Below are positions 3,144 through 22,417 of a stretch of 32,000 bases of DNA, piece by piece. The stretch is from an uncultured Thermofilaceae archaeon (lineage in GTDB: Archaea > Thermoproteota > Thermoprotei > Thermofilales > Thermofilaceae): contig CAZAZN010000003.1 of assembly GCA_964489665.1 (NCBI GenBank), forward strand, positions 28,192-60,191, written 5' to 3'. Numbering within the stretch: the stretch's first letter is position 1; every line of letters starts with the position of its first letter. The position numbers and the translations under genes were made by a program. Under the pieces are notes generated by a model. That model saw nothing but the letters and a program-made list of their open reading frames with translations. It was not told where the DNA came from and did no database searches.

Positions 3144-3977
3144 TTATAGCCTCTGCCCAAGCGCCTCGTCCATGCTCCCCTCCCGGTAGCCGTATAGGTC
3201 TAGTGCTACGAACTCGTAGCCCAGCTCCCTTAGCTTAGCATATAGCTCGTCGAGGAGCCTCTCATCGAAGAGCGCTCTCCTCTCGCTCCTCCCGACCTCT
3301 ATCCTCGCAACCCGGCCGTGATCCCTCACCCTAACTACCTTAACGCCGGTAAGCTCCCGCACCACATCCTCCGCTAGCTCTATCCTCCTTAGCCTCTCGA
3401 GCGTTATTCTCTCCCCGTACGGTATTCTAGTCGCTAGGCACGTAGTGGCGGGCCAGTTCCAGTTAGGTAGCCCCAGCTCCCTAGCCAGTTCCCTTATCTC
3501 CCTCTTAGTTAACCCAGCCTCCGCTAGGGGGCTCCTTACGCCAAGCTCCCTCACCGCCCTTAGCCCAGGCCTCCGCTTACCCAGGTCGTCGGCGTTAGTA
3601 GCCTCCATTACGGCAAACGAGCTTAAGTTCTCGCTAGCGTACTCTAGGATCCTGCCGAGCATCATCCTCTTACACAGGTAGCACCTATCCGGAGGGTTAC
3701 TCCATATCCTCTCGTCCGAGAACTCCAGCTTAAGGACGACGTGCCTAACGCCTATCTCCCGAGCCAGAGCCTTCGAGGCCTCGAGGTCGCGCCTAGCCAT
3801 GAACGGCAAGTCCACGGTTACGGCTAAGACCCTGCTACCGCCTAGTGCTCTCAGCGCCGCCGCCGTTAGGAACGTGCTATCCACCCCACCCGAGAAGGCG
3901 ATCACCGCTACCTCCTCCTCTAGGTTTCGTAGGGACGCAAGAAGGCTCCTGTACTTCTCGCTCAGAGATACACGCAT
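3144..3977 (-). CDS. larE: LarE, PP-loop ATP-dependent sulfur transferase of NPN cofactor biosynthesis (three-Cys type)
   Basis: 277 aa with PP-loop AFSGGVDST, a CxxC (RCYLCK), and the conserved Cys in TTCLATRIPYGE. Confidence 0.85.
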   Translation of the reverse strand: MRVSLSEKYRSLLASLRNLEEEVAVIAFSGGVDSTFLTAAALRALGGSRVLAVTVDLPFMARRDLEASKALAREIGVRHVVLKLEFSDERIWSNPPDRCYLCKRMMLGRILEYASENLSSFAVMEATNADDLGKRRPGLRAVRELGVRSPLAEAGLTKREIRELARELGLPNWNWPATTCLATRIPYGERITLERLRRIELAEDVVRELTGVKVVRVRDHGRVARIEVGRSERRALFDERLLDELYAKLRELGYEFVALDLYGYREGSMDEALGQRL

Positions 3978-4143: not shown

Positions 4144-4965
4144 ATGACCCCCAGCGTGGAGGGAGGCAGGAAGGTACTGGTTATCGACTGCAGCGTTGCG
4201 GGGATATCAGGGGACATGCTTCTAGGGGCGCTAGTTGACCTAGGCGCGAGCAAGGAGCGCATAGCTGGCCTAAGGGACGTCATCTTAAGGCACGTTGAAG
4301 GAGTTAAGGAGCTGGAGATAGAGGTAAGGGATGTCAGGCGCAGAGGGTTTAGGGCCAAGAAGGTTACGGTTAGAGCGGTTGAGGAGGGCGGGGAGAAGCA
4401 CGGCGACGAGGTAATAGGCGCGGTTTCGCGCGTCGTAGACGACCTGGGGCTACCCGATAAGGCTAGGGAAATCGCCCTAAGCGCGGTTAAGCTGCTGATA
4501 GAGGCCGAGGCCTTAGTGCATGGAGAGGAGGTAGAGGAGGTGCACCTCCACGAGACCGGCTCAGTCGACACGATAGTGGACATCGTCGGCTGCGTAGTGG
4601 CCTTAAGCGACCTCGGGCTCCTTGACGCCGAGGTTTACGCTACGCCCGTAGCCGTTGGAGGAGGTAGGATAAGGATAGCGCACGGGGTGTTGTCGAGCCC
4701 CGCGCCAGCCACCTTGGAGATCCTAAGGAGGAGCGGCGTTTACATATCGGGTGGGCCCATAGACGCGGAGCTTACGACGCCCACGGGAGCCGCCTTGCTC
4801 GCGAGCATCGTCAACAAGTCAACTCCCTTCTACCCACCTCTAAGGGTCGAGAAGATAGGGTATGGCGCCGGTGATAAGGACTTCAAGGAGTTCCCCAACG
4901 TTCTAAGGCTCGTGGTCGGCACGCGGTACGACGCCTTAGAGCTGTGGATGAAGGCCCGAGATTAA
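4144..4965 (+). CDS. larC: LarC N-terminal (DUF111, LarC1-like) domain protein with no C-terminal CTP-binding domain
   Basis: 273 aa with intact canonical motifs VIDCSVAGISGDMLLGALVDLGAS and VHLHETGSVDTIVDIVG. The ORF stops at 4965, and only 42 bp follow before the convergent larB, so no LarC2 part is encoded here. Confidence 0.8.
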   Translation: MTPSVEGGRKVLVIDCSVAGISGDMLLGALVDLGASKERIAGLRDVILRHVEGVKELEIEVRDVRRRGFRAKKVTVRAVEEGGEKHGDEVIGAVSRVVDDLGLPDKAREIALSAVKLLIEAEALVHGEEVEEVHLHETGSVDTIVDIVGCVVALSDLGLLDAEVYATPVAVGGGRIRIAHGVLSSPAPATLEILRRSGVYISGGPIDAELTTPTGAALLASIVNKSTPFYPPLRVEKIGYGAGDKDFKEFPNVLRLVVGTRYDALELWMKARD

Positions 4966-5007: not shown

Positions 5008-5835
5008 CTAACGCTTGGCTCTAAGCTTCTGCCTAACCACTCCAACCCTGCGCGCTATTAGCGCAGCTACCACGCCGGCGTTAACCCCGCTATCTATGTT
5101 GACTACCGCTAGGCCTAGAGGGCAAGCCTGAAGCATCGAGAGCAGGGCCGCCTGCCCCCCGCCGCCCGCCCCGTAGCCTATGGAGGTCGGCACGCCTATC
5201 ACGGGCACGTCTACGAGGGATGCGATGACAGAGGGCAACGCCCCCTCCATGCCGGCGACGGCTACTATCACGTCGACGTCGCTCTCCTTAAGCTTCCTGA
5301 TAGCCGCGAGAACCCTGTGGAACCCCGCTACCCCCACGTCGTAGACGGCTACCGTTCGGCAGCCCATCTCCTCCGCGATGAAGCGAGCTTCCTCGGCTAC
5401 CCTCACGTCGGCAGACCCGCCCGTCACTATGCCTACCGTGCAGGGGAGCTTTGGTCTCTCCTTAAAGCCCTTCACCCGCACGGCAGCTATCCTCCCAACC
5501 TCGTTGATTACGACCTCGTACTCAGAGCTCCTAGCAAGATCCTTCAGGGCGCTGATCTGCTCGTCGGTTAGCCTGGAGACTATGACCTCCCCCATTTCCG
5601 GCGTTACCGAGCGCACGAGCTTCATGAGGAGGTCTACGCTCTTACCCTCACCTAAGATTATCTCGGGAACGTCCCTCCTTAACGCTCTCCCTAAGTCGAA
5701 CCTCACGTACTCCTCTATCTGCTTAAGCGCGTGAAGCCTTATCATGCTCACGGCTTCGTCTACATCGACCTCTCCCCTCGCAACGGCTTCAAGTATACTC
5801 CTCAAATCTAGCATTTTTTCCTTCAACGATATCAC
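5008..5835 (-). CDS. larB: LarB, NaAD carboxylase/hydrolase of NPN cofactor biosynthesis
   Basis: 275 aa with a PurE-like C-terminal half: GIVTGGSADVRVAEEA, DVGVAGFHR, AVAGMEGALPSVIASLVDVPVIGVPTSIGYGAGGGG, VVNIDSG. A TATA-like GTATAAATTTCC (revcomp of about 5840-5851) sits too close to 5835, so the real start may be the in-frame ATG at 5814. Confidence 0.85.
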   Translation of the reverse strand: MISLKEKMLDLRSILEAVARGEVDVDEAVSMIRLHALKQIEEYVRFDLGRALRRDVPEIILGEGKSVDLLMKLVRSVTPEMGEVIVSRLTDEQISALKDLARSSEYEVVINEVGRIAAVRVKGFKERPKLPCTVGIVTGGSADVRVAEEARFIAEEMGCRTVAVYDVGVAGFHRVLAAIRKLKESDVDVIVAVAGMEGALPSVIASLVDVPVIGVPTSIGYGAGGGGQAALLSMLQACPLGLAVVNIDSGVNAGVVAALIARRVGVVRQKLRAKR

Positions 5836-5932: not shown

Positions 5933-6946
5933 CTACGTCCTAACCCCCCGGCTTAGGTTCACGATGTACTCGCGCTGCAAGCCAGATCCAACGAATATCC
6001 TGTAGTCCTCACCTCCCCTAAGCGCCGCCCTCTCCAACACCCCCTTAACGACTATCTCGTCGCCAGCTCTAGCTATCATCCTGTGCAGTCCGATCATCGA
6101 CACTACGCGGCTAACCTTAGCCGGGTTATCCAGCTCCCCTTCGAGGACCTCTATTACCTCAACCCCGTATACCGCCGGCCTAAACATGGACTCGCCATCG
6201 TCAATTACCTTGCACACGGCCTTAACGGGCAACACCGGGACGTAGGGGATGCTAGTTGAGATCTCGCTGAACGCGCGTACCGCGTTTACGTTAAACCTAA
6301 CGTCCCCGTACCTACCCCTATTCAGCCTCACTCTATCGAGCGGCGTATCCCTCGACAGGGATAGCCTCCCCTCCTCCTCAAGCAGCCTTAGGGCTTCGAG
6401 CACCTTAAGGTAGTTCCGAGCGCCGTACACGATGACGTCTATATCGCTGAACCGCCCGTGCATTCCAAGGCTAATGGATCCGCTTACGCCGAAGTTCTCG
6501 AGCGGGACCCCCGACCTCTCGGATAGCGCCAGCACGAGCTCTACAGCCTTATTCTCTAGCCAGTCCCTACTAGCCTTCCTCAGGAGCCTAGCTACCGACT
6601 CGTCGGGCCTGTACACCTCCTCTACCAGGTGCTCTGGGACGCTAACCAAGTACTTCCTCAGGCGCTTAGAGTAGTAGACGTACTCGGGAAAGTGGCTCCT
6701 CAGAGCCTCAACGACTACGCGGTAGGTCTCGTGCGAGAACAGCACTTTAGGCCTCACGAGCCTCCTCCCCTTAAAGCGCCAGGTTTGATCGAGCCACTCT
6801 AGGTCGAAGTAGCGAGCGTAGTCCTCGGGAATGTACTTAAGGTTGCATATCGCCCTGCCTGGATGGTGCTCGTACCCTACTACGTAGAATATGAAGCCGT
6901 GCTTAGTTACCAGCGCGTCGCAGTCCCTAAACCTCAAGCTCGACAC
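5933..6946 (-). CDS. Uncharacterised pol-beta-type nucleotidyltransferase family protein (paralogue 2 of 4)
   Basis: 337 aa with HGFIFYVVGYEHHP, GVSGSISLGMHGRFSDIDVIVYG, and DDGESMFRPAVYGVEV...GDEIVVKGVLE. It lies 97 bp upstream of larB on the same strand. Confidence 0.8.
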   Translation of the reverse strand: MSSLRFRDCDALVTKHGFIFYVVGYEHHPGRAICNLKYIPEDYARYFDLEWLDQTWRFKGRRLVRPKVLFSHETYRVVVEALRSHFPEYVYYSKRLRKYLVSVPEHLVEEVYRPDESVARLLRKASRDWLENKAVELVLALSERSGVPLENFGVSGSISLGMHGRFSDIDVIVYGARNYLKVLEALRLLEEEGRLSLSRDTPLDRVRLNRGRYGDVRFNVNAVRAFSEISTSIPYVPVLPVKAVCKVIDDGESMFRPAVYGVEVIEVLEGELDNPAKVSRVVSMIGLHRMIARAGDEIVVKGVLERAALRGGEDYRIFVGSGLQREYIVNLSRGVRT

Positions 6947-7088
6947 CGCCTAGCCTCGCGCTAACTATCCGGGGCTTTTAGTTAACGTTACCCTAGCTCG
7001 CTGGCATGCGGCAGCTTACCTAACCAAAGTAGGTCTGCCGTATTAGGGACACTAAATTTATATGCTTATCGGCGAAAACCTATTTCTG

Positions 7089-7997
7089 ATGTCCGAAGAA
7101 GGCTTCAAGAAGATAATGGTGTTCTTGTCCACCGACGTTCACCCCTCCCCCTTCGACGTGCTGTTCGCTTACGATACCGGCGTGGACGCCGTCGTGTACT
7201 ACGGCGGTGTAACCGCCGAGACCGCGGGCTCGCTTATACTAGATACCATGTTCCCTAGGGGGCCCGAGGGGCTGAAGTACACGGTAGTGTTCATAGGGGG
7301 GAAGAACTACGACGAGTGCCTTAAGATTGCGGAGGTCGCCAAGAAGACCTACTTCAAGCCCTTCGTGGCCTCGACCATAGTCGACCCCGCGGGCGCTTTC
7401 ACAACGTCATCGGCCGTAGTCGTCAAGGTGTCCTCCTGCCTAAAGGCTAAGGGCTTCGACCCCGCTAAGGCTAAGTACACGGTCCTAGGGGGAGCCGGGA
7501 GGGTCGGCCGCTGCATCGCCTACCTTCTCGCCAAGCTCGGCGCCACGGTCGTTATCGGCGACGTGCTCGTTGAGGGAGCTAAGGAGAGGGCTAGGGAGAT
7601 AAACGAGAAGGTTGGGGCGGAGAGGGCGATCGCGTTCGAGAAGGCGACCGATAAGCCCGAGAACGTGCTGGAGGCCTGTAAGGATTCGACGGTGGTCATC
7701 ACGGCGGGACCTCCCGCCAAGACCCTGCTACCGCTGGACGTCCTAACCAAGCTTGAGAGCTGCGTGCTGGTAGCGGACATTAACGCGACGCCGCCGTACG
7801 GCGTCGAGGGGATAAAGCCGACCTACGACTGCAAGGCCATGAAGAAGCTACCTAGGGTCACCGCCATCGGCGCACTCGCTATAGGCAGCTTTAGGAACAA
7901 GGTCCAGAGGGCCCTCATCAGGAAGGCGTTCGAGACCCCGGGAGCGTTCTTCGGGCTCGACGAGGCGTTTGAAGTAGCCCGTAGCCTAGTTAGCTAG
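7089..7997 (+). CDS. MtdA/MtdB-type NAD(P)-dependent methylene-tetrahydromethanopterin dehydrogenase
   Basis: The N-terminal STDVHPSPFDVLFAYDTGVDAVVYYGGVT, VVFIGGKNYDECLKIAEVAKKTYFKPF, IVDPAGAFTTSSA and the Rossmann VLGGAGRVGRCIAYLLAKLGATVV match my recollection of methylotroph MtdA. The track ORF starts at 7062, but TATA-like TAAATTTATA (7053-7062) overlaps that ATG. The in-frame ATG at 7089 fits a leaderless transcript better. Confidence 0.75.
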   Translation: MSEEGFKKIMVFLSTDVHPSPFDVLFAYDTGVDAVVYYGGVTAETAGSLILDTMFPRGPEGLKYTVVFIGGKNYDECLKIAEVAKKTYFKPFVASTIVDPAGAFTTSSAVVVKVSSCLKAKGFDPAKAKYTVLGGAGRVGRCIAYLLAKLGATVVIGDVLVEGAKERAREINEKVGAERAIAFEKATDKPENVLEACKDSTVVITAGPPAKTLLPLDVLTKLESCVLVADINATPPYGVEGIKPTYDCKAMKKLPRVTAIGALAIGSFRNKVQRALIRKAFETPGAFFGLDEAFEVARSLVS

Positions 7998-8085: not shown

Positions 8086-9006
8086 ATGGGGAGGCGAGGG
8101 AGCGGCAGGAGGACGCGTAGGAGCGCTCGGGCAAGGTACTTAGCTAGGAGGGTTAGGACCAGCTACTGGAGGCCCGGGTGCAACTACCTCGAGGCCATAG
8201 TTAAGGCGCTTAGGAAGGTGAAGCTTAGGGACGGGGACATCGTGGTGGTCTCGGAGAAAGCTATCTCGGTAGCCGAGGGCAATATCGTGGATGAGAGCGG
8301 GATAAGGCCTAGCCTACTGGCGAGGCTAATAGCCAAGTACTGGATGAGGCTCGTATGGGGCTACCTACTCGGCGTCCTCAGCGGGCTGAGCAGGAGGACC
8401 CTCTACAACCTGCGAAACTACCCCTTAGAGCTAGGTGCTCGCCACAAGGAGCTAGCCCTTAGGCTCACGTCCCCCCTCCAAGCCCTCTCCTTCGGCTCGG
8501 AGGGGGGCATCGACGGATCTAACCTCCCGTACTCCTACGTAGCCCTCCCGCTTAGAGACCCCCAGGCGGTTGCTGAGAGGATAAGGAGCTATATTAGGGA
8601 GAGGCTTGGCAGGGACGTCGTAGTCGTCATCTCGGACTCCGATAGGTGCTACTCGTGGAGGAGCTTCCACATAACCCCAAGGCCGACGGCTGTTAAAGGC
8701 ATCAAGTCGGCTGGTGGCTTCTTAACCTACGTGATCTGCAACTTCCTTAAGCTAAGGTCCCATCCCACGCCCGTCGCTGTAGCGGGCGGAGACTTCAGCA
8801 TTGAGGAGCTTCTAACAGTAACGGCTATCGCGGAGAGGCTTAGGGGGCATGGCGCTGGGAGGGACGTGTGGGAGATGGCGAGGAGGTTCGGGACCTCCCT
8901 AGATGGCGTCACCTGGGAAATGCTGGAGAGCATCCCCCACTACCCGATAGTCGTTGTTAGGCGAATTCCGAGAAAAAGAGCGGAACGCAAAAAGCTAGGG
9001 GGTTAA
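8086..9006 (+). CDS. CofE-like (F420-0:gamma-glutamyl ligase family) protein
   Basis: 306 aa with LRDGDIVVVSEKAISVAEGN, SEGGIDGSNLP and VVVISDSDRCYSWR, corresponding to the CofE-family blocks DGD..VV.SK..SKAEGR, GIDASN and V.I.DT.GR. Confidence 0.65.
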   Translation: MGRRGSGRRTRRSARARYLARRVRTSYWRPGCNYLEAIVKALRKVKLRDGDIVVVSEKAISVAEGNIVDESGIRPSLLARLIAKYWMRLVWGYLLGVLSGLSRRTLYNLRNYPLELGARHKELALRLTSPLQALSFGSEGGIDGSNLPYSYVALPLRDPQAVAERIRSYIRERLGRDVVVVISDSDRCYSWRSFHITPRPTAVKGIKSAGGFLTYVICNFLKLRSHPTPVAVAGGDFSIEELLTVTAIAERLRGHGAGRDVWEMARRFGTSLDGVTWEMLESIPHYPIVVVRRIPRKRAERKKLGG

Positions 9007-9710
9007 GCCCCGGCCTCTATCCCGAGGACGCGCATCGCCTTAAGGAGGGATACGCCAACTAGCGACGCGATCGCCGTCATGAGTAGCCTCTCGGCCACCG
9101 AGATGGGGAGGACGGCCATGAACAGCGCGGGAAGCCCGGGGATGCTCTCAACCGGCATGAACAGCCCAGCGAACTGTATGAAGGCGAGATTCCCGTACAT
9201 GTGATCCGCCATTAAGCCGCAGTAGCTCACCAGCGGAACTAGGTACTCAGTCCTAGCCCTCTTAGGGAGCTTCCACAGGGCTAGCGCTAGGGCGAGCGCT
9301 ACGATGTGCGGCACCGGGTACAGCGGAGCGGCCCTACCTACCCACGTGGCGTACCAGCCCGCGACTAGAGCCCCAAGGATGCAGGGCGCGGCGGCCCGCC
9401 TATACGGGCTCCCTCCGCGGGAGCTCGCAAGCCCCGCTACTAGGCTCGATATCACGGGCGCTGGGAGGAAGAGGAGGCCTATCGGGGTCGGCGTGCCTGA
9501 GGGTAGCACGAGCGCTATAGAGGTGCCTACTAGGGCTGCTAGCGCCCCCTTCCAGGGCCCCAGCGCTATCCCGAATACCGGCGCGATCGAGGCTGCCAGG
9601 TTTATCCTCCCCTTACCCCCTATGATCGGGATGCCGGGGATCAGCGTTAAGACGGCGTACGTCGCTGCTAGCACCGAAATCATGGACACATCCTTTGCCC
9701 TAAGCTTCAT
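9003..9710 (-). CDS. Integral membrane protein, ECF-transporter S-component-like (cofactor or precursor uptake candidate)
   Basis: 235 aa with about 6 predicted helices. The N-terminus KDVSMISVLAATYAVLTLIPGIPIIGG...INLAASIAPVFGIALGPWKGALAALVG resembles substrate-capture components. A BRE/TATA lies 27 bp upstream (leaderless). Confidence 0.45.
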   Translation of the reverse strand: MKLRAKDVSMISVLAATYAVLTLIPGIPIIGGKGRINLAASIAPVFGIALGPWKGALAALVGTSIALVLPSGTPTPIGLLFLPAPVISSLVAGLASSRGGSPYRRAAAPCILGALVAGWYATWVGRAAPLYPVPHIVALALALALWKLPKRARTEYLVPLVSYCGLMADHMYGNLAFIQFAGLFMPVESIPGLPALFMAVLPISVAERLLMTAIASLVGVSLLKAMRVLGIEAGA

Positions 9711-9885: not shown

Positions 9886-10386
9886 GTGCTTGTCGTGGAA
9901 AGATGTTACATACTCTACGTCGTCCCGTTGCCGAAAAAGAGGGAGGATAAGCGGAGGTTCCTACTCAAGGTCTTCGGCTCTAACGTGACCATGGACATAC
10001 TGGAGCTAACCTGCACTAAGGAGAGGGTTGCCCAGAAGGAGCTGATAAGGAAGCTGCCGTACTCGAATAAGACAATAATATCCTACCTTAACGAGCTCGT
10101 ATCCCTAGGGATCTTAAAGGAGTCGATGGAGAGGGTGAGGAGGGACGGTAGGCGGATCTGGATCAAGCAGTATACGCTAACTAGGGTGGGGAGGCTGATC
10201 GCGCTCCTAGTTAGCCCTCCCGAGAGGTTGAGGAGGGAGGAGATCGAGAAGCTGCTTAAGGATCTCCTAAGGCTCTACCTAAGGTTCATAGTGAAGCTGT
10301 GCTTGAAGCACGGGCTGGACGCGGGCATCGTCCTCAAGCTCGCTGAGGAGGAGGTGAAGAGGCTTAGCGGGGGCTCTAAGGCATAA
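9886..10386 (+). CDS. Winged-helix transcription regulator (archaeal wHTH)
   Basis: 166 aa. ILELTCTKERVAQKELIRKLPYSNKTIISYLNELVSLGILKE is a typical HTH plus wing. The start codon is uncertain (GTG at 9886). Its stop lies 1 nt before the CitG-like gene, so the two are probably co-transcribed. Confidence 0.6.
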   Translation: MLVVERCYILYVVPLPKKREDKRRFLLKVFGSNVTMDILELTCTKERVAQKELIRKLPYSNKTIISYLNELVSLGILKESMERVRRDGRRIWIKQYTLTRVGRLIALLVSPPERLRREEIEKLLKDLLRLYLRFIVKLCLKHGLDAGIVLKLAEEEVKRLSGGSKA

Positions 10387-10387
10387 G

Positions 10388-11362
10388 GTGAGCGGGATGT
10401 CGGCCGAAGGGTGGAGGAGGGCTAGCGCTAGGATAGCGCGGAGGGTGGCTAGGTGTGCTCAGCTAGCCATGCTCCTCGAAGTTAGCGCCTATCCTAAGCC
10501 CGGCAACGTGCACAGGCTGAGGGATTTCAGGGAGACTAGGTACGAGCACTTCCTAGTGTCCTCCTGCATAGCTGCCGACTACTTCCGCGCGGCCGCCATT
10601 AGGGGGCTAAAGGCAAGTGTCGGGCTACTCGACTTTAGCGAGATCGGCGTTGGGAGGCTAATCGAGGCCTGCATGAGGGAGGTCATTCGGGAGCAGCGAG
10701 GCGGCAACACCTGCCTAGGGACGGTCACGATGCTAATGCCCCTAAGCGCGGCTAGCGCGTTAACGATGCTCGAAGGCGGCGACATGTATGGCGACCTGAG
10801 GGCTAACCTCTCCCTCGTGCTAAGGTCTACGACGCCGCGGGACGCGGTAGCGTTCTACAACGCGATTAAGGTGGCTAAGCCTAACATCGGGAGGTCTAAG
10901 TGGCTTGACGCGTTCGACGAGTCGTCTAAGAGGGTTATCCTGGAGAGGGGCATTACGCTATACCAGATATTCGAGTACGCGTCTAAGTACGATACCGTAG
11001 CTAGGGAGTGGGTTACGGACTTCGAAGTAACATTTAAGCTAGGAGCCCCTTACATGCAGAAACTGCTAGATGAGGGGTATGATATAAACGCAGCCATCGT
11101 ACACACCTTCCTAAAGATACTGTCAGAGATACCGGATACTCTGATCGTTAAGAAGGCGGGCCTAGAGAAGGCGCTCGAGGTGTCGAGGATGGCGAGGGAG
11201 GTTCTCGAGGCTGGGGGCTTAAGGACTCAGGAGGGCAGGAGGCTCCTAGCCGATATGGACTTCAAGCTAAGGGAGGAGGACCACCTGCTTAACCCGGGAA
11301 CGACGGCTGATATCACGGCGGCTAGCATAATGCTAGTCCTGTTGAGGGGCATGAAGTTTTAG
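10388..11362 (+). CDS. CitG-family (triphosphoribosyl-dephospho-CoA synthase-like) protein
   Basis: 324 aa. The CitG/MdcB hallmark N-terminus ALLLEVSAYPKPGNVHR appears here as AMLLEVSAYPKPGNVHRLRDF, followed by GGNTCLGTVTMLMPL and LNPGTTADITAAS. Alternative start ATG at 10397. Confidence 0.75.
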   Translation: MSGMSAEGWRRASARIARRVARCAQLAMLLEVSAYPKPGNVHRLRDFRETRYEHFLVSSCIAADYFRAAAIRGLKASVGLLDFSEIGVGRLIEACMREVIREQRGGNTCLGTVTMLMPLSAASALTMLEGGDMYGDLRANLSLVLRSTTPRDAVAFYNAIKVAKPNIGRSKWLDAFDESSKRVILERGITLYQIFEYASKYDTVAREWVTDFEVTFKLGAPYMQKLLDEGYDINAAIVHTFLKILSEIPDTLIVKKAGLEKALEVSRMAREVLEAGGLRTQEGRRLLADMDFKLREEDHLLNPGTTADITAASIMLVLLRGMKF

Positions 11363-11378
11363 GCTAGCGGCGCTTGCC

Positions 11379-12434
11379 TCAACGGGGCAGAAGGGGGACT
11401 ACGTAGCTCTGTGGCACCTCTAGGGAGCCCACCACGACCCTGTAGTACCTGTGGCCGCGCTTGTCAACTACCTCCTCCAGCTTACCCCTGAAGCGCACCC
11501 TCTCGCCCTCGTAGAGGACGCCGGAGAATATCCCCTCGAAGGAGACTATCTCGAGTATCTCGCCCACGTCCTCGCCGTGCTTAACGGCTACGTCCTCGAC
11601 CCTGTACAGGGCTGGCAGGAACAGCGACTCCGAGCTATCGGATATCGTGGCGCGCCCCTCTACCTCGCCTAGAGACCTGTACACCCTGTCGCCGTACCTC
11701 TCCCTTACCTCGCAATCCTTCCTAACGGCATGGATTGAGAAGTACCTCCCCCTGTAAACGCCGTAGTTCCATCTCCTCCTAGCTATCTCGAGCAGCTCCC
11801 TAGGGCTGATGCCAGCGTCCCTCGCGTGCTCCACGCTCCACCTCCTCAGGTAGTCCTCGCTTAGCGGCTTTACGGGCGATCGGGGGTCGAGCAGCGCCCC
11901 TCTTACGAACTCCTCGACCCTCCGCATGTTCTCCGCGCCGTACACCACTAGGTCTATGTCCGAGAGGGCTGGATTGTGTATCCCAAGGAGGGTTGAGCCG
12001 GTAACTCCCATATCCCTCGGGTCAACGCCAGCCTCCCGCGCTATCCAGCTAGCGAGCGACGCAACGTCCCTCTCCAGCGGGTCCCCGCCGCCTGAGGCTA
12101 GGATCTCCCTTAGCCTGTCCTCGGGCGCGTAATGCCTCTTAACGTACTCTCTAGGGACCATGGACATCCTTATCCCCCTTATGGGGCAGTAGTGCAGGTA
12201 GTGGGGGTACCGCTCTTCGAGAAGCTTGAAGCTCTCCCCCACTTGGACGACGTGGTACCTCTTGATGATCCTCTCGTACTTAACGCTCCCCCTCCTCCAT
12301 ATCCTTCCCGAGGCGGATGGAACGTACTTCAGGTAGGCCGTGTACTTCCCGGGCGGGTGCAGGTACCCTACGACGCAGAAGAATAGCCCCTCAACGGTCT
12401 CCAGGTAGTCCTTATCCTTCACGAGCCTACCCAC
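11379..12434 (-). CDS. Uncharacterised pol-beta-type nucleotidyltransferase family protein (paralogue 3 of 4)
   Basis: 351 aa with EGLFFCVVGYLHPP, GVTGSTLLGIHNPALSDIDLVVYG, and SDSSESLFLPALYRVE...GERVRFRGKLEEV. Its GTG start directly abuts the stop of paralogue 4 (12435), indicating translational coupling. Confidence 0.8.
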   Translation of the reverse strand: MGRLVKDKDYLETVEGLFFCVVGYLHPPGKYTAYLKYVPSASGRIWRRGSVKYERIIKRYHVVQVGESFKLLEERYPHYLHYCPIRGIRMSMVPREYVKRHYAPEDRLREILASGGGDPLERDVASLASWIAREAGVDPRDMGVTGSTLLGIHNPALSDIDLVVYGAENMRRVEEFVRGALLDPRSPVKPLSEDYLRRWSVEHARDAGISPRELLEIARRRWNYGVYRGRYFSIHAVRKDCEVRERYGDRVYRSLGEVEGRATISDSSESLFLPALYRVEDVAVKHGEDVGEILEIVSFEGIFSGVLYEGERVRFRGKLEEVVDKRGHRYYRVVVGSLEVPQSYVVPLLPR

Positions 12435-13499
12435 TCACTCCACCCGCTCCAAGGGGTACATAACGTCGTCGGCGTACTCCCCTAGCAACAGCCTGCAGAA
12501 GCGTCGACCCTTCTCCTCCACAACCTCGACTACGCCTCTCGCCAGCACCCTCTCGCCCTTAACGGCCTGCTCGCAGAACCTACCCCTAAACGAGGCGACC
12601 TCGAGCAGCGGGTAGGGAATGGAGCCCTCTAAGACCTCTACATCATCTACGAGGTACCTGCAGGGGGTGAATATCGAGTCCCCATCGTCAACTACCCTCG
12701 CAACTACCGTCGCTCGCCCAGCCCTGCGGTAAACCCTCTCCCCGTACCTCTCCCCGAACTCCCCAGGCCGCTTAACTAGCCTGATATAGAAGTCCCTACC
12801 CTTAAAGACCCCCTCCAGCACCTTCCTCCTCTCAACCCTCAGGAACTCCCTCAACGGCATGCGCGTATCTCGAGACCTAAACTCGTAGAGCTTGAGCAGC
12901 TCCTCCTCCCTATAGGCCCTCAGCTCGCCCTGGTCCGTCAAGACATCCTTAAGGTAGGAGTACAGTAGCCTACCCTCCCTCTCCCCGTAGACCACCAGGT
13001 CTATGTCGGAGCCCTCGGTGTGTAGCCCCACTAGGAGCGAGCCGCTAACTCCCATCGACTCCAGCTCAACTCCGGACGAGGATAGGCGCTCGGCTAGCCC
13101 TCGCGCAAGCTCCTCGAGCCCATCCCTAGCCCCCCGCTCTACGATCTCCCTTAGCCTAGAGGTTGGGCTGTACACGCGCCTTATCCTAGACAGGGGCACG
13201 GCTTGAAGCCAGCGGTTGAAGAACTTGTCGAAGTACATGTACTCGGGGAACCTGCTCCTGATAACCTCCTCCCTCCTCAGGAGGCTGTAGACCTTAGCGT
13301 AGCGCGTCCCGTCAGGCCCCACCCTGCTACCGCGCGGGTCCGGCACGTACCTAACGTAGGCTACGACCCTATCCGGCGGGTGGAGAAGGCCCTTAACGTC
13401 GAAAATCAGGCGGTCAACGGTCTCCAGGAAGTACCCCTCAATAGGCCTCTCGCCTAGGGTCTCGGCGGCTGATCTTTCCCCCAAGCCGATGGCACCCAT
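12435..13499 (-). CDS. Uncharacterised pol-beta-type nucleotidyltransferase family protein (paralogue 4 of 4)
   Basis: 354 aa with DRLIFDVKGLLHPP, GVSGSLLVGLHTEGSDIDLVVYG, and DDGDSIFTPCRYLVD...GERVLARGVVEVV. Its ATG lies 2 nt after the ftr stop. Confidence 0.8.
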   Translation of the reverse strand: MGAIGLGERSAAETLGERPIEGYFLETVDRLIFDVKGLLHPPDRVVAYVRYVPDPRGSRVGPDGTRYAKVYSLLRREEVIRSRFPEYMYFDKFFNRWLQAVPLSRIRRVYSPTSRLREIVERGARDGLEELARGLAERLSSSGVELESMGVSGSLLVGLHTEGSDIDLVVYGEREGRLLYSYLKDVLTDQGELRAYREEELLKLYEFRSRDTRMPLREFLRVERRKVLEGVFKGRDFYIRLVKRPGEFGERYGERVYRRAGRATVVARVVDDGDSIFTPCRYLVDDVEVLEGSIPYPLLEVASFRGRFCEQAVKGERVLARGVVEVVEEKGRRFCRLLLGEYADDVMYPLERVE

Positions 13500-13501
13500 C
13501 C

Positions 13502-14430
13502 CTACTCGGGCGGGGCGAGCTTCTCCCTGGCCTTCTCGACGGCTTCTCGAAGCCCTATCTTGTAGGGGCCAAGCTTCCCCCCGAAGTTCGCGGCGGATAT
13601 CTTCCTAACCCCCTTAACCCTAGCCGCTGCGAGGGCCGCTACCCCCATGGCGAGCGCTACCCGGTCGGCGCTTAAGCCGTTGATGACTATCTCGTACACG
13701 CACCTTACGCCCTCGGGGACGAGGGAGCCGGGCACCTTATCCCTGAGCGTGGGGCAGAGGAGGTGGTTAGTGTAGCTCTAAGCTTAGGGTACTTGAGCGA
13801 GCCGACCTTAGACCCGGACCTGACGATCCCGCCGGGAAAGGGCGTTATAACCCCCCTGACGTGCCTCCTAATGGCCCTGACGGCCTCTTCAGCCGCCCTA
13901 AGGCCGGCCTCCAAGCTCTCCGAGAGTATTATCACGTTCCCGCCAGCAACCCCCTTCACCACCCCAACGGTGTCCTCTACCAGGAACTCCCCCTCCATCA
14001 CGGGGATATGCCACATGGTCCGCCCGTAGTCCTCTCGCTTGTACTCGAAGCCGTCCCCAAACTTAGCGAGCGACGAGCCCAGCCGCATCCTCCTCTTCGC
14101 CTTAGGTAAAGCGTCGAACAGCGCGGTTGTGGGGCACGTGAGCACGCACTGCCCCACCCTACTCAGGAGCTGCAGCTTAAGCTCGGGTATCGTGCGGTGG
14201 TAGAGCTGGACTATAACCCCCGGCCTGCCGTCCGGGGTAGCGTTGCTGGAGACAAAGCACTCGACGCCGCCCTCCGCGGGGCACATTATTATCGAGGTCG
14301 CGAACCCGACCGCCTCAAGGGCTGCCGTTAGCGCCCACCTCCTGCTAGCGGCCGTGATCAGCAGCCTACACGCGTACATGGGAAAAGCCTCCGCGAACGT
14401 ATCCTCGACCTCAACCCTGTTTACGATCAT
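13502..14430 (-). pseudogene. ftr: Formylmethanofuran:H4MPT N-formyltransferase (Ftr) interrupted by a 1-nt frameshift
   Basis: ORF 13705-14430 carries the Ftr N-terminal and central part: VEDTFAEAF, LITAAS, IMCPAEGG, TPDGRPG, GQCVLTCPT, IPVMEGEF, GVAGGN, PFPGGIVRSGSKVGS. ORF 13502-13735, in another frame, carries the Ftr C-terminus: PEGVRCVYEIVINGL...ISAANFGGKLGPYKI. The frames switch at about 13772-13776. Confidence 0.85.
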
Positions 14431-14521: not shown

Positions 14522-16363
14522 TTAGTAGGATGGGAGAACGTCGTGCTTCTCGGTGCAGAGGGCCTCGTAGATCTTCTTAGCGAGCCTCGCTACCTCCCTG
14601 GCCCTCTCCTTGCCTCCAGGTATGGCGCAGGTTAGGTAGGCTCCCTTCTCAGCCCTCTTAGCGGCCTCCTTCGGGTCCATTCCCAGTATCGCGGCGACGG
14701 CCGCCGGGATCGTGATGTTGATTATCGTGTGGCCGATGTAGGCGAGCTCTTGCATTAGGACGGCGCCAGCCATTAGCGCGATGCTGTACTCCTCCGGAGT
14801 AACGCCCTCCGGCACCTTGCCCTCAAGGACGAACTCGGGAATCGCCTTAGCGCACAGGTTCTCGACGTGTATCTTCTTCCCATCGATCGTGACATCATAG
14901 CTCACGAAGCTGTCAAAGCCCCAGTACTTCTTCGTGAACTTGTCAGTCCTCCTAGCCTGCGGCCTAATCTCGGTGAACTTAAGCTCTATCTTCTTGCCCG
15001 TGAAGGCGCTTAGTATTGCGGAGCCCCTCTTCTCCACGTACTCCTTCCTCTCGTCGTCTAGCTCCCTAGCGACTTCCTCCACGCTCTTCCCGGCCTTCAG
15101 GCCCTCGTAAACCTTCACAGCCCTCCTGTAGATCGCCCTATCCCTGATGTCCGTCGTGGCTACGATTATCGCCTTAGTGACCGGGCCCCTCATCACCTCC
15201 TCGGCCTTCCTAGCGATCGTGTTAGCGGCGCATATAGCCATCTCTGGGTCTATGTAGGACCTTAGCTTGTACTTCTTAATCTCCTCGGCAGCCGCGTAGA
15301 CGTCGCCCTTAAACTTGAGCAGGAGCCTCATCGCGGGGACTACGTCGCCACACAGGTGGCCACACGGCGCGTTCACGGGACCTCCGCTGAAGCCAGCGCC
15401 TATTATCGGGGCCTCCTCGAAGCCTGCGAATATCTCGTTTAGGGCCATAGCGCCTAGCGTGCTTATGCCGCCTATGTCCTTTAGTATTAGGCCGAAGTCG
15501 CCTATGACCCTAGCCGTGTCGAACTCCTCGCCAGTGCCCTTAAGGTGTAGCTTCTCGGGGAGCTTAGCGGCCTCGACGGCGCCCTTACCCGCCATGTAGG
15601 CCGCGTCCACTGTGCCAAACGGCCCGTACTCCTCCCCGACGAACGCGTCCGGGTGGACTATCTCTAGGGTCACGGCGCAGGCGATTAGGCACGGCCACAG
15701 CGGGTACGGGGTGATGCCGGCGCCCTCCATGGCCCTCATCATGGCCTCGGTGCCTACCTTAGCGGCGTTCTTGCACAGCTCGGGTATCACGATGTCCTCT
15801 CCAAGGGCGCTGTGTCCCCACGGGCTGCCTCCCGCTATGAACGGCGGTAGCTTAGCGCCGTCAACCCGAGTGAGCTTTTTGTCCATTAGGGCCTCATATA
15901 TCGCCTTGTAAGCGGCGAAGGCCGAGACCCTATTACTGAACTTGTTGGTGATTAGGGCTATTGCGCTAGTCCTAGTGGCGCCAGCGTACATCCTAGCTAG
16001 CGCTCCCAGCTTCCTGTTAGCCATGGGTACTCCAGCTCTCGCGGCAGCGCCAGCGAAGTAAGCTAAAGCTGCCACTATTAGTGCGGCGTTAGATGGGGCG
16101 GCGCCAGCGTTCTTAGCGGCTTCGACAGCGTTCTTTATGATCGTGTCGAGAGGTATCCGCGGAGCAGCGGCGTCAGTTAGCTCGGGGCTTAGGCCCGATA
16201 GTATATCTATCATTATGGAGTTAGCGGCGCAGAAAACGGGGATGACAAGGCTCCCGTGGCCCTTGGTAGCGGCCTCAAGGCGGTCATTAGTCATTAAGTC
16301 GGGCTTAAAAGTAACGGCGGCAAGCGTAGCCAGGAGCACTCGTTCCCTCTCAACTTGGCTCAT
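14522..16363 (-). CDS. Conserved-looking 613-aa protein of unknown function (orphan in the C1/Lar island)
   Basis: This is the longest ORF in the window, with uniform codon usage matching its neighbours. It has its own BRE/TATA, a G-rich SD-like leader and an oligo-T terminator. It is soluble and Ala/Gly-rich (for example GFSGGPVNAPCGHLCGDVVPAMRLL). I recognise no family motif. Confidence 0.85.
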   Translation of the reverse strand: MSQVERERVLLATLAAVTFKPDLMTNDRLEAATKGHGSLVIPVFCAANSIMIDILSGLSPELTDAAAPRIPLDTIIKNAVEAAKNAGAAPSNAALIVAALAYFAGAAARAGVPMANRKLGALARMYAGATRTSAIALITNKFSNRVSAFAAYKAIYEALMDKKLTRVDGAKLPPFIAGGSPWGHSALGEDIVIPELCKNAAKVGTEAMMRAMEGAGITPYPLWPCLIACAVTLEIVHPDAFVGEEYGPFGTVDAAYMAGKGAVEAAKLPEKLHLKGTGEEFDTARVIGDFGLILKDIGGISTLGAMALNEIFAGFEEAPIIGAGFSGGPVNAPCGHLCGDVVPAMRLLLKFKGDVYAAAEEIKKYKLRSYIDPEMAICAANTIARKAEEVMRGPVTKAIIVATTDIRDRAIYRRAVKVYEGLKAGKSVEEVARELDDERKEYVEKRGSAILSAFTGKKIELKFTEIRPQARRTDKFTKKYWGFDSFVSYDVTIDGKKIHVENLCAKAIPEFVLEGKVPEGVTPEEYSIALMAGAVLMQELAYIGHTIINITIPAAVAAILGMDPKEAAKRAEKGAYLTCAIPGGKERAREVARLAKKIYEALCTEKHDVLPSY

Positions 16364-16605: not shown

Positions 16606-17844
16606 CTAGTAGCTTTTATAGCCCTTCTCCCTAAGCTCGTGCTCTACGATCTCCGCGACCCTCCTCAGAGGGATGCCCAGCTCCTTCGCTACCCTCTTTA
16701 AATCCTCGTACTCCGGCTTTACGTTAACAACCTTCCCGTACGGGGTCTTCGAGGTCTTAACCCTAATGTAGTACGTCCTCCCCTGAATAGACAGCTTAAC
16801 GACCTCCTTAGACCTGGCGGCAACGATCCTAGGCACCTCGAGCACGCGTACTCCTAGCGTTCCAGTCTCTTCCATCAAGACGTCCACGAGCCTGGCGTAG
16901 TCCCCCGGTCTGCACAGCACTTTAACTATGTGCACCGGCCTGTTCTTCTTGCCCGTAGCTGGGATTATCGAGACGTCTAGCGCCCCCTCCTCCATTAGCC
17001 TGCCGACTAGGTAGCCTAGCACCTCGCCCGTTACGTCATCTAGGTTGGTCTCTAGGACGATTATCTTGTCGCGAACCGCCTTACGGGTTTGCCCCACGAC
17101 CACCCTTAACACGTTCGGTACCCTCCCGTAGTCCTCGGGTCCCGCCCCATAGCCAACCCTCTCGAGGGCTAGGGGCGGGTAGAACTCGACGATTGTGCTC
17201 GTGAGGTTCGCGAGGAGGGCTGCGCCTAGGGGCGTTGTTAGCTGAGACTTCACGGGCGCGCTGGAGAACGCGTACCCGTGAATCGACAGTATCTCTAGGG
17301 TTAGCGGGTGAGGTACTGGGACCAGGCCGGGCCCTGGGACCACCCTAAACCCCCCGCCCAAGGCTGGGGGAGTCGTATAGACCTCCACGCCCTCGCCGAA
17401 CGCGCCAATCTCGTCGAGCAGGGCGGCGGCTCCCGCGATGAATAAGAGGGCCTTAGCCGGGTAAGGCTCTAGGAGCTGGAGCGACGTAGTCCCGTACACC
17501 CTGGAGAGCGCGCTTACTAGGTCGTCGAACACCCGCAGCGAGTACTCCCTAGCTTTAGCCGATAGGCCGGCGTCCTCAGCGATCTTCGCGAGGATCGCCC
17601 TAAACTCCTCCGCGGATGGGGAGCTGCCCTCCCTGCTGACGGACACGCTTAGGGCTTTAGCCCTAATGCCCCCTCTTTCGACCTCCACTAGATTTATGGC
17701 TAGGCGGTTGCGGACCGCCTTAGCCTCAATAATCCCTGCGAGCTCCTGAAGCCTCTCGTAGCTGGCGCCAGCGTCCACAAGGGCAGCTAGGAGCTTAGCC
17801 TCGGTAGCGCCCGAAATTCTAGGGTCTACTACGATCGTCCTCAT
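16606..17844 (-). CDS. larC: Full-length LarC-family protein with a degenerate N-terminal metal-site domain and a canonical C-terminal (LarC2-like) domain
   Basis: 412 aa. The C-terminal ETNLDDVTGEVLGYLVGRLMEEGALDVSIIPATGKKNRPVHIVKVL...ETGTLGVRV...KPEYEDLKRVAKELGIPL matches the LarC C-domain. At the N-terminus, GISGDM is replaced by RISGATEAK, and the HxHE..D..DI.G block is replaced by LQLLEPYPAKALLFIAG. Confidence 0.85.
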   Translation of the reverse strand: MRTIVVDPRISGATEAKLLAALVDAGASYERLQELAGIIEAKAVRNRLAINLVEVERGGIRAKALSVSVSREGSSPSAEEFRAILAKIAEDAGLSAKAREYSLRVFDDLVSALSRVYGTTSLQLLEPYPAKALLFIAGAAALLDEIGAFGEGVEVYTTPPALGGGFRVVPGPGLVPVPHPLTLEILSIHGYAFSSAPVKSQLTTPLGAALLANLTSTIVEFYPPLALERVGYGAGPEDYGRVPNVLRVVVGQTRKAVRDKIIVLETNLDDVTGEVLGYLVGRLMEEGALDVSIIPATGKKNRPVHIVKVLCRPGDYARLVDVLMEETGTLGVRVLEVPRIVAARSKEVVKLSIQGRTYYIRVKTSKTPYGKVVNVKPEYEDLKRVAKELGIPLRRVAEIVEHELREKGYKSY

Positions 17845-18057: not shown

Positions 18058-19794
18058 ATGCAGCTTAAGCTCACGCTCATAACCGGTAGGAGCCTTAGCC
18101 AGGGCGTGTCTGTCGAGGACAAGTTCGAGAGGGAGTACCTCGAGAGCGTTGCCGTTGCAGCGCTTGACGAGGACGATATGAAGAGGCTGGGGGTGCGGGA
18201 GGGGGGCCGCGTTAAGATCAGGTCCGCGTTTGGGGAGGTTGTCGTCAGGGCTGTTAGGTCAAAGCTCCCCTGCAAGGGAGTCGTGTTCGTGCCCATGGGG
18301 CCTTGGGCTAATGCACTCACAAGCCCTTACACGGATGGTTCGGGGATGCCCACGCTTAAGGGGCTAGAGGTGGAGGTAGCTCCAACGGATGAGGAGGTAA
18401 CGCCCGTCGAGCGGCTCCTAGCTGGGATGGGTAGGCGCCCTTTAAAGGCCGTGGAGGCTAGCGGCGCGGAGGACCCCGAGGGCGTTGAGGGGAGGAAAGT
18501 GGTGAGGCACTTCGTCTGCAGCTTCTGCGGCTGTTTATGCGACGACCTCGAGGTCGTGGTCTCTAGGGGCAGGGTTGTCGAGGTAAGGGGGGCGTGCCCC
18601 CTTGGTAGAGCCAAGATACTGGGCTACGCTAGGAACAGGATCCTACACCCCTACGTTAGGGAAGGGAACGGGTTAAGGAGGGTTAGCTTAAAGGAGGCCG
18701 TTAGGAGGGCGGCAGAGATACTGGTTAACGCTAAGTACCCGCTGCTCTTCGGCTGGAGCTCTACGTCCGTGGAGGCGATTGAGAGGGGGCTCGAGCTAGC
18801 CGAGCTCGTCGGAGGGGTTATGGATAACACTAGCGTGATATGCCACGGCCCCACGATACAGGCGCTTCAGGAGGTGGGGCTCGTTACGTCGACGCTAGGG
18901 CAGGTCAAGAACTTCGCGGACCTGATCATCTACTGGGGCTGCAACCCGCTTGAGGCCCACCCGAGGCACATGTCCAGGTACAGCGCGATGGCGCGCGGAG
19001 TGTACAGGAGGTCTAGGAGAGAGAGGAAGGTCGTGGTCGTGGACGTTAGGCGCACGAGTACGGCTAGGCTCGCCGACGTGTTCGTAAAGGTGGAGCCTGG
19101 ACGCGACTACGAGCTCATAAGCGCGCTCAGGATGGCCGTAAGGGGGCTTGACATAGAGCGCGACGAGGTGGCTGGAGTCCCCGTGGAGCAGGTCTACGAG
19201 CTGGCCGAGATTATGATGAGCTGCAGGTTCGGCGTTGTATTCTACGGCCTAGGCGTCACCATGACGGCTGGGAAGAGCAGGAACGTCGAAGAGCTCTCTA
19301 GGCTAGTCCAGGACCTGAACGAGTGGACGAAGTTCGTCCTCATAGCTATGAGGGGACACTACAACGTTACCGGCGCTAACCAGGCGTTCACCTGGACTAC
19401 GGGGTACCCCTACTCGGTGGACTTTAGCAAGGGCTACCCGAGGTACAACCCCGGCGTTACCAGCGCGACCGACCTGCTGCTTGAGGGAAGCGTCGACGCG
19501 GCGCTGATAGTGGCGTCCGATCCCATCGCCCACCTGCCTAGGGAGTGCGTTAGGCACCTGCTCGAGATCCCGCTCATAACCATCGACCCGAAGTGGAGCC
19601 TTACGGCCTCCGTGTCCGACGTGATCATACCGTCAGCGGTAACGGGCGTTGAGTGCGGCGGTACGGCGTACAGGATGGATAAGGTGCCCCTAAGGCTGAA
19701 GAAAGCCGTCGACCCGCCCAAGGGGGTGCTCCCCGACTACGAGGTCCTCGAGATGATCATCTCGGAGGTTAGGAGGCTAAAGGGCGCGGGGTGA
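18058..19794 (+). CDS. fwdB: Formylmethanofuran dehydrogenase, fused subunits D (N-terminal) and B (C-terminal)
   Basis: 578 aa. Residues 1-115 form an FwdD-type pterin-capping barrel: LTLITGRS..QG, GGRVKIRSAFGEVVVRA, VFVPMGPWAN. From about residue 150 the sequence is FwdB: the Fe-S motif CSFCGCLCDD...GACPLG, and the active-site region DNTSVICHGPT with Cys rather than Sec. An SD-like GGAGAGGAGG lies upstream. Confidence 0.85.
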   Translation: MQLKLTLITGRSLSQGVSVEDKFEREYLESVAVAALDEDDMKRLGVREGGRVKIRSAFGEVVVRAVRSKLPCKGVVFVPMGPWANALTSPYTDGSGMPTLKGLEVEVAPTDEEVTPVERLLAGMGRRPLKAVEASGAEDPEGVEGRKVVRHFVCSFCGCLCDDLEVVVSRGRVVEVRGACPLGRAKILGYARNRILHPYVREGNGLRRVSLKEAVRRAAEILVNAKYPLLFGWSSTSVEAIERGLELAELVGGVMDNTSVICHGPTIQALQEVGLVTSTLGQVKNFADLIIYWGCNPLEAHPRHMSRYSAMARGVYRRSRRERKVVVVDVRRTSTARLADVFVKVEPGRDYELISALRMAVRGLDIERDEVAGVPVEQVYELAEIMMSCRFGVVFYGLGVTMTAGKSRNVEELSRLVQDLNEWTKFVLIAMRGHYNVTGANQAFTWTTGYPYSVDFSKGYPRYNPGVTSATDLLLEGSVDAALIVASDPIAHLPRECVRHLLEIPLITIDPKWSLTASVSDVIIPSAVTGVECGGTAYRMDKVPLRLKKAVDPPKGVLPDYEVLEMIISEVRRLKGAG

Positions 19795-19798
19795 GAGC

Positions 19799-21493: not shown

Positions 21494-21497
21494 GAAC

Positions 21498-22358: not shown

Positions 22359-22417
22359 CCTTATTTGGCTCGCCGAGCCGCGAGAAAGCGAGCTTGCGCG
22401 AGCAGGGGCGGTAGGGG

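Follow-up and report, generated by a model that had tools for sequence, protein, structure and literature searches.

The window, a stretch of 32,000 nucleotides from an uncultured Thermofilaceae archaeon (contig CAZAZN010000003.1, positions 28,192 to 60,191), contains a gene of the CitG superfamily and four genes of one nucleotidyltransferase (NTase) family within an island of genes for one-carbon (C1) metabolism. The CitG-like gene and the NTases very probably form a module for the biosynthesis of a C1 cofactor, because their synteny is conserved across two domains of life. The chances are about even that the target of this module is the side chain of a tetrahydromethanopterin (H4MPT)-type carrier. 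This is the best reading in view of a gene block that includes mptG and of a parallel in bacterial methylotrophs. The favoured reading as a whole, in which the CitG-like enzyme and the NTase paralogs build this side chain and are encoded alongside the carrier-using enzymes in one island, is put forward tentatively.

CitG displaces adenine from ATP to give an alpha-glycosidic 5-triphosphoribosyl adduct. CitX and MdcG are NTase-fold enzymes which move this adduct onto a hydroxyl group with release of pyrophosphate (PPi). In H4MPT the ribitol bears an alpha-ribofuranosyl-5-phosphate, to which 2-hydroxyglutarate is joined as an ester. An alpha configuration is expected from inversion of ATP but not from an inverting phosphoribosyl pyrophosphate (PRPP) transferase. 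To our knowledge no enzymes have been assigned to the addition of the alpha-ribosyl-5-phosphate and the hydroxyglutarate to methanopterin. An earlier note, made from the window sequence alone, had proposed a two-step transfer of the CitG/CitX kind for this purpose. The window was compared here with 87 related loci, NTase-seeded, of which 80 came from a metagenome scan and 7 from look-ups. Gene families in these loci were counted by comparing the window proteins with six-frame open reading frames (ORFs).

Arrangement of the CitG-like gene and the NTase genes

The genes of the module and their immediate neighbours in the window are as follows.

10388 to 11362, plus strand: CitG-superfamily gene, 324 amino acids (PF01874, E 9.4e-78)
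11379 to 12434, minus strand: NTase of clade A (NTA), 351 amino acids (PF01909, AlphaFold2 model)
12435 to 13499, minus strand: NTase of clade B (NTB), 354 amino acids (PF01909)
13502 to 14430, minus strand: ftr, formylmethanofuran:H4MPT formyltransferase, frameshifted (PF01913 and PF02741; NF002554, 305 bits; frame analysis)
9886 to 10386, plus strand: winged-helix regulator gene, immediately 5' of the CitG-like gene (weak HTH_24 and Lrs14 matches)
5933 to 6946, minus strand: NTase of clade 4 (NT4), 337 amino acids, immediately 5' of larB (PF01909, alignment, clade analysis)
2004 to 3062, minus strand: NTase of clade 3 (NT3), 352 amino acids (PF01909, alignment, clade analysis)

The CitG-like gene does face two tandem pol-beta NTase genes, as the earlier note described: a gene with full-length PF01874 on the plus strand converges on NTA and NTB on the minus strand. 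The stop codons of the CitG-like gene (11362) and NTA (11379) face each other, but the gap between them is 16 nt and not the 17 bp given previously. The stop codon of NTB directly abuts the start of NTA. The listed ftr ORF (13705 to 14430) was found to be shortened by a frameshift. Its C-terminal 91 codons lie in another frame at 13502 to 13777, with the stop codon at 13502 to 13504. When the C-terminus is re-read in this way ftr ends 2 nt ahead of the NTB ATG at 13499, so that ftr, NTB and NTA are tightly packed. Co-transcription of the NTases with ftr, which had been assumed before, is likely from this 2-nt spacing and the abutting NTB and NTA genes. The frameshift is either an assembly error in the metagenome-assembled genome (MAG) or the mark of a pseudogene.

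The earlier note missed two further paralogs of the same family, NT3 and NT4. It also overlooked the wider H4MPT/methanofuran island in which these genes lie and the strong conservation of the association in other loci.

The NTase family

The four window NTases only just reach the PF01909 gathering score (cut-off 21 bits), NTA with 22.2, NTB with 28.2 and the other two with 26.8 and 21.4 bits. NTA and NTB are 37% identical and both contain the canonical G-x-x-G-S ... S-D-I-D motif. Clustering of 127 NTase sequences gave four clades, and the window holds one member of each. In each of the four clades, conservation is 98-100% at G143, G146, S147, S158, D159 and D161 and 95-100% at E242, the putative third catalytic carboxylate. 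Positions 233/235/300 are invariant within a clade yet differ between clades (S/H/E in clade A, F/R/R in clade B, V/N/I in clade 4 and E/E/V in clade 3). As the catalytic residues are intact in every clade and these positions are clade-specific, we read the four clades as four probably active enzymes with different substrates, not as one enzyme with degenerate partners.

The AlphaFold2 model of NTA has a mean predicted local distance difference test score of 95.7. It comprises three domains, namely a beta-rich basic N-terminal domain, a pol-beta NTase core and an acidic C-terminal oligonucleotide/oligosaccharide-binding (OB) fold. The median charge in the family is +6 for the N-terminal domain and -4 for the OB domain, a combination which fits a small anionic ligand rather than RNA. 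A Foldseek search with the model gave weak OB-fold matches only.

A profile search of 1.84 billion cluster representatives returned 603 at E < 1e-30, with more distant members at E 1e-10 to 1e-30. Pfam searches with 33 family members at E up to 5 gave only the generic PF01909 (approximately 40 residues) and scattered chance-level matches, with no RNA-binding domains and no match to CitX (PF03802) or MdcG (PF10620). No NCBIfam family model was matched by the NTases. PDB sequence and profile searches found no relative, and PADLOC gave nothing beyond a single match at E 0.0068. To judge from these searches the NTases represent a new, large and uncharacterised family. Named homologues occur in Bathyarchaeia, Thermoprotei, Nezhaarchaeales, Geothermarchaeota, several Asgard groups and Chloroflexota/Anaerolineales, all of them MAGs from TACK or Asgard archaea or Chloroflexota. 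Orthologues of NT3 were found in Thermoprotei, Bathyarchaeia, Nezhaarchaeales and Asgard MAGs.

The CitG-like gene

The CitG-like protein aligns with positions 1-283 of the 284 in the PF01874 profile, that is, over its full length. None of the NCBIfam CitG/MdcB equivalog cut-offs was reached (71.4/280, 62.1/282, 48.5/272 and 36.8/477 bits, score/cut-off). The alignments to these equivalogs are confined to residues ~208-320, which is the C-terminal third of the protein. Likeness to true CitG/MdcB in this third only would fit an enzyme that keeps the ATP chemistry but has another acceptor. The closest solved relative is PDB 3h9p, a 'putative triphosphoribosyl-dephospho-CoA synthase' (E 4.6e-18). 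On these grounds the protein is proposed to be an ATP-dependent alpha-(5-triphospho)ribosyl transferase. Its gene begins with GTG, 1 nt past the stop of the winged-helix gene in an operon arrangement, and this pair is also kept in four related loci (L009, L014, L015 and L018). Neither the annotated genes of the window nor the neighbour families conserved in the 87 loci include citrate-lyase or malonate-decarboxylase genes (citD/E/F, mdc), an acyl carrier protein (ACP) or CitX/MdcG.

Conserved neighbourhoods

Genes of the window were found in the related loci in the following numbers.

RimK: 28/87 loci, usually directly 5' of an NTase
fwdC: 20/87 loci
ftr: 18/87 loci
fwdA: 16/87 loci
mch: 14/87 loci
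CitG: 13/87 loci
fwdDB: 13/87 loci

A typical same-strand operon, seen in many of the loci, reads fwdDB-fwdA-ftr-fwdC-mch-RimK-(CitG)-NTB-NTA. The H4MPT-dependent genes (ftr, mch, fwdA and fwdC) mostly share one operon with the NTases. The DNA around the NTase homologues, ~0.8 Mb in all, holds the 13 CitG-like ORFs (12 distinct sequences). Since a stretch of this size should contain a single-copy gene far less than once on average, the association of CitG with the NTases exceeds chance. NTB is the paralog most often beside CitG. The gene 5' of NTB (n=21) is RimK in seven cases, CitG in six and MptG in one, while the gene 3' of it is NTA in 18/21. NTA in turn is preceded by NTB (17), NT4 (8), LarC (6) or RimK (5). 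The functional link between CitG and NTases suggested by the earlier note is strengthened by their adjacency in several different arrangements on archaeal and bacterial contigs.

The suggested link to H4MPT also gained support, both from the C1 genes in shared operons and from the committed biosynthesis gene mptG in two loci. One of these (L042) has the operon Mch-RimK-DUF1464-CitG-DUF447-MptG-NTB-NTA. Its MptG passes the TIGR00144 cut-off (196 bits vs 113.5) for the beta-ribofuranosylaminobenzene 5'-phosphate synthase family. The DUF1464-CitG-DUF447-MptG block occurs in two loci only, at 5177-8868 in L042, where it is directly 5' of NTB, and at 16533-20515 in L029. The DUF1464 and DUF447 families are further candidates for steps of H4MPT biosynthesis.

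CitG-seeded look-ups of two megabase Bathyarchaeia contigs (L088 and L089) showed NTB and an energy-coupling factor (ECF) transporter S component divergent from CitG. The ECF S component recurs beside CitG and NTB in L009, L010, L014, L015, L018, L043, L070, L088 and L089. It is often accompanied by a winged-helix regulator (L009, L014, L015 and L018) or a CofE-like ligase (L009 and L010). In an Odinarchaeota locus (L090) ftr, an adjoining CofE-like gene and cdhD are found near an NTase pair.

Other neighbours are characteristic of particular groups of loci. In Chloroflexota-type loci (L003, L028-L045 and others) NTA is followed by a sodium:solute symporter (27 loci; 21 cases in the neighbour counts for bacterial loci), often with a xylose-isomerase-like TIM-barrel protein and a LacI regulator after it. 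Two GFO/IDH/MocA oxidoreductases and an AP_endonuc_2 protein are found 5' of NTB in L009. The symporter, TIM-barrel and L009 oxidoreductase neighbours may supply the alcohol acceptor. In Bathyarchaeia-type loci (L001, L004, L020, L035, L058, L060, L064 and others) a DRG/Obg-type GTPase gene is kept on the opposite strand between NT4 and NTA. A triple tandem NT4-NTA-NT3 without C1 genes nearby was seen in L005, L011, L013, L016, L021, L022 and L026. The neighbours of this triplet are a PfkB-family kinase and ECF/ABC transporter genes.

The one-carbon island

Pfam and NCBIfam scans showed the first 23 kb of the window to be a single long H4MPT/methanofuran one-carbon island. In addition to the genes given above it contains the following.

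1 to 971, minus strand: partial membrane-protein gene, 414-434 amino acids, transporter-like, cut by the window start
1117 to 1995, plus strand: RimK-type alpha-L-glutamate ligase, nearest MptN (NF040720 MptN_Meth, 275.7 bits, cut-off of 350 not reached; TIGR00768, 245 bits)
3144 to 3977, minus strand: larE, sacrificial sulfur transferase, immediately 5' of NT3 (TIGR00268, 277.9 bits vs cut-off 150)
4144 to 4965, plus strand: larC1-type gene, the N-terminal part of LarC (TIGR00299, 186 bits vs cut-off 90; PF01969 positions 1-235 of 375)
5008 to 5835, minus strand: larB, nickel-pincer cofactor biosynthesis (NF033503, 225.9 bits vs cut-off 175)
7062 to 7997, plus strand: MtdA/MtdB-like NAD(P)-type methylene-H4MPT dehydrogenase (PF09176 Mpt_N, E 7.8e-22)
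8086 to 9006, plus strand: CofE-like gamma-glutamyl ligase family gene (PF01996, E 1.4e-22; under the CofE equivalog cut-offs)
9003 to 9710, minus strand: ECF-transporter S component (PF07155)
14522 to 16363, minus strand: 613-amino acid ORF between ftr and larC (no family match)
16606 to 17844, minus strand: full-length larC, LarC1 + LarC2 (PF01969; NF052512; TIGR00299)
18058 to 23383, plus strand: fwdD/B fusion, fwdA, fwdC and mch (TIGR03129, TIGR03121 and TIGR03122; PF02289 MCH, E 6.7e-119)

The MtdA/MtdB-like gene and the fwdD-fwdB fusion stand in an apparently archaeal island, and this layout recalls the bacterial methylotroph H4MPT module. Further MtdA/MtdB-like (Mpt_N) genes were found in L029 (3-740) and L009 (15044-15979). 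For the 613-amino acid ORF, searches of Pfam, NCBIfam, PDB and PADLOC gave no match, and none of the 87 related loci has a counterpart; other metagenomes hold near-identical proteins (a cluster of 3). Upstream of the window (L093 and L094) are membrane proteins and toxin-antitoxin genes, of the PIN/MazE type in L094, where an FmdE-domain gene also lies. No tRNA genes were found in the window.

Lar genes among the NTases

LarB, LarE and both LarC genes pass their equivalog cut-offs (225.9/175, 277.9/150, 186/90 and 129.9/50 bits). NT3 and NT4 bracket larE, larC1 and larB in the window, in the arrangement NT4 then larB and larE then NT3. The two LarC genes differ in that the one at 4144-4965 is LarC1 only and the one at 16606-17844 has both LarC1 and LarC2. 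Two related loci have the orders RimK-CitG-NTB-LarE-LarB-LarC-NTA (L080) and CitG-NTB-LarB-LarC-NTA (L067). In six bacterial loci (L003, L041, L043, L067, L074 and L080) LarC adjoins NTA so closely that the two overlap or are ~4 nt apart. Among the annotated window genes Pfam showed none of the LarA type, and the Lar-containing operons are gap-free and therefore leave no space for one. The presence of larBCE without larA bears on the question of which other enzymes use the nickel-pincer cofactor.

Proposed function and alternatives

We hypothesise that the target of CitG/CitX logic is here a small-molecule cofactor, with the NTases coming from a new family. In the first step the CitG-like enzyme would use ATP as the ribosyl donor and displace adenine with inversion, as CitG does on dephospho-CoA. 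This would leave a pterin-arylamine-ribitol intermediate with a 5-triphosphoribosyl group in alpha linkage at its terminal ribitol hydroxyl. The clade-B NTase would then drive attack of an alcohol on the alpha-phosphate, the alcohol in canonical H4MPT being the 2-OH of (S)-2-hydroxyglutarate. PPi would leave and a ribose-5-phosphate-hydroxyacid phosphodiester would remain. In a third step the adjoining RimK/MptN-like ligase would attach glutamate at the carboxylate of the hydroxyacid. The remaining three NTase clades would carry out related but distinct nucleotidyl or phosphoribosyl transfers, possibly on Lar-derived nucleotides. A role for NTB as a CitX analogue that esterifies hydroxyglutarate is chemically attractive, and the exact sequence of CitG, NTase and hydroxyglutarate steps is plausible but rather doubtful.

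The two-step transfer proposed in the earlier note stands in part. The links of CitG to the NTases and of both to H4MPT were borne out, and no genes of citrate lyase or malonate decarboxylase were seen; the NTases, however, match no CitX or MdcG family. The single NTase that the scheme calls for was not what was found, as up to four catalytically intact paralogs co-occur. This is the first of several points that weigh against the H4MPT side-chain reading. Cell-extract work by R. H. White reportedly named PRPP instead of ATP as donor of the ribosyl group, with condensation to hydroxyglutarate as a later, ATP-dependent step. The phospho-hydroxyglutarate side chain is a product of classical methanogens, yet no euryarchaeal methanogen was present among the ~370 NTase matches listed, of which the name-bearing ones were assessed. 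The scheme leaves unexplained why larE, larB and larC genes lie between NTB and NTA (L067 and L080), directly 5' of NTA (L003, L041, L043 and L074) or beside NT3 and NT4 in the window. Lastly, the methylotroph orthologue of RimK, Orf5/MyfB, extends the polyglutamate of methylofuran and not H4MPT (PMC8141765), so that the neighbourhood could point to a furan cofactor.

The Lar genes suggest a different role, in which the NTases act with LarB, LarE and LarC on the nickel-pincer nucleotide (NPN) or on its nicotinate-dinucleotide precursors. They would make or re-form a dinucleotide or tether the cofactor, which would serve an enzyme of the C1 island, and CitG would take part in the same nucleotide-tailoring chemistry. 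This is unlikely. It draws on the equivalog-level Lar genes in the NTase operons, on their position between NTB and NTA in L080 and L067, on the LarC genes that abut NTA and on the arrangement around NT3 and NT4 in a window with no annotated LarA-type gene. Yet 17-18 of the ~21 NTB-NTA pairs have no Lar gene in between, and CitG and NTB go with mptG, mch and RimK, none of which is known to relate to NPN. NPN is itself a mononucleotide, and its synthesis is not known to involve an NTase. A further reading takes in both sets of genes: the four NTase clades, the CitG-like enzyme and LarBCE would together build an undescribed cofactor specific to TACK/Asgard archaea and some Chloroflexota. This is not probable. 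One possibility for such a cofactor is an H4MPT-type carrier whose side chain bears different phosphodiester-linked groups. Another is a nickel-pincer nucleotide that has been nucleotidylated or phosphoribosyl-tethered so that an enzyme of the C1 island can use it; if true, the Lar pathway would for the first time be seen to serve something other than LarA.

The module could instead tailor a methanofuran- or methylofuran-type cofactor of the Fwd/Fhc-like complex, with RimK-type and CofE-like ligases making the polyglutamate tail and the NTases and CitG adding a terminal group. RimK is the commonest direct 5' neighbour of the NTases (16 cases over clades A, B and 4), the operon opens with fwdDBAC and ftr, and a CofE-like ligase adjoins the module. 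The methylotroph Orf5/MyfB is moreover an experimentally shown methylofuran glutamate ligase (PMC8141765). Against this, neither ribose nor phosphate nor a nucleotide is known from the methanofurans or methylofuran (PMC8141765), which so offer no target for CitG-type chemistry, and CitG shares a block with the H4MPT gene mptG and not with mfn genes. The furan reading is accordingly quite unlikely. A literal CitG/CitX system, in which the NTase attaches triphosphoribosyl-dephospho-CoA to the ACP of a citrate-lyase- or malonate-decarboxylase-like enzyme encoded elsewhere, is suggested by the Pfam CitG domain and the NTase fold. It is most improbable, as the protein falls far under the CitG/MdcB equivalog cut-offs, CitX/MdcG matches are lacking at E up to 5 and the conserved neighbours are C1-pathway genes with no citD/E/F or mdc among them or the annotated window genes. 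Just as improbable is that the NTases are RNA/tRNA-modifying or defence-type enzymes which lie near C1 genes by accident. The C-terminal OB fold weakly matches SSB/PriB (Foldseek E ~2e-3) and terminal uridylyltransferases and CCA-adding enzymes (E 0.2-0.4), but the synteny with C1-cofactor genes is kept across archaea and bacteria. The acidic OB domain and the absence of RNA-binding or defence matches, the single PADLOC match apart, also argue against such a role.

Significance

A guess made from a single locus becomes a testable candidate set, which consists of the CitG subfamily, a positional orthologue of methylotroph orf7, and NTase clade B, which travels with it over two domains of life. 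Both the CitG-like gene and the NTases are good, though still unproven, candidates for late steps in making the methanopterin side chain. In Bathyarchaeia, Asgard archaea and Chloroflexota the NTase family is linked to one-carbon metabolism, and we know of no chemical examination of the C1 cofactors of these groups.

Comparison with known systems

The locus shares with the CitG/MdcB and CitX/MdcG systems a CitG-superfamily gene paired with NTase-fold genes, and the proposed logic of an ATP donor and transfer of an adduct. It differs in that the equivalog cut-offs are missed and the likeness is limited to the C-terminal third. The NTases here are ~350-amino acid, three-domain proteins with no match to CitX/MdcG. 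There are no ACP or lyase genes, the context is that of H4MPT and methanofuran, and up to four NTase paralogs occur together.

CofC and CofD of F420 biosynthesis, which activate a phospho-hydroxyacid as a nucleotide diphosphate and then transfer it, also form a phosphodiester between a cofactor alcohol and a 2-hydroxyacid via nucleotidyl activation, as is proposed here. They are a possible model for a two-enzyme NTase pair, although their folds differ and there is no sequence relation. With the nickel-pincer pathway the locus shares LarB, LarE and LarC genes within the NTase operons; it differs from that pathway in the lack of a LarA-type user here and in the NTases and CitG, which are foreign to it.

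A CitG-type gene is annotated in the classical methanogen M. formicicum (PMC7386643). No report was found that assigns a function to orf7, to this NTase family or to the addition of the ribosyl-phosphate and hydroxyglutarate to methanopterin, in a literature search that covered subscription journals incompletely.

The closest parallel in gene order is the methylotroph H4MPT island. The methylotroph cluster mch-orf5-orf7 has been described (PMC3615186), and a second report gives the order as the cyclohydrolase gene mch, an alpha-L-glutamate ligase, a triphosphoribosyl-dephospho-CoA synthase and then fae (PMC11533326). Both match the Mch-RimK-CitG order of the related loci, and the statement in the earlier note that CitG-like genes are linked to methylotroph H4MPT islands is thereby supported. 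An MtdB-like gene and an fhc/fwd-like complex are shared as well. By this parallel the CitG-like gene is likely the counterpart of methylotroph orf7. The Methylomonas cluster differs in that no NTase is annotated in it (PMC11533326). The dephospho-tetrahydromethanopterin of M. extorquens has no phosphate and no hydroxyglutarate (PMC8141765). Methylotrophs, which seem to lack the NTases, would therefore need only the CitG step, and this fits the proposed scheme.

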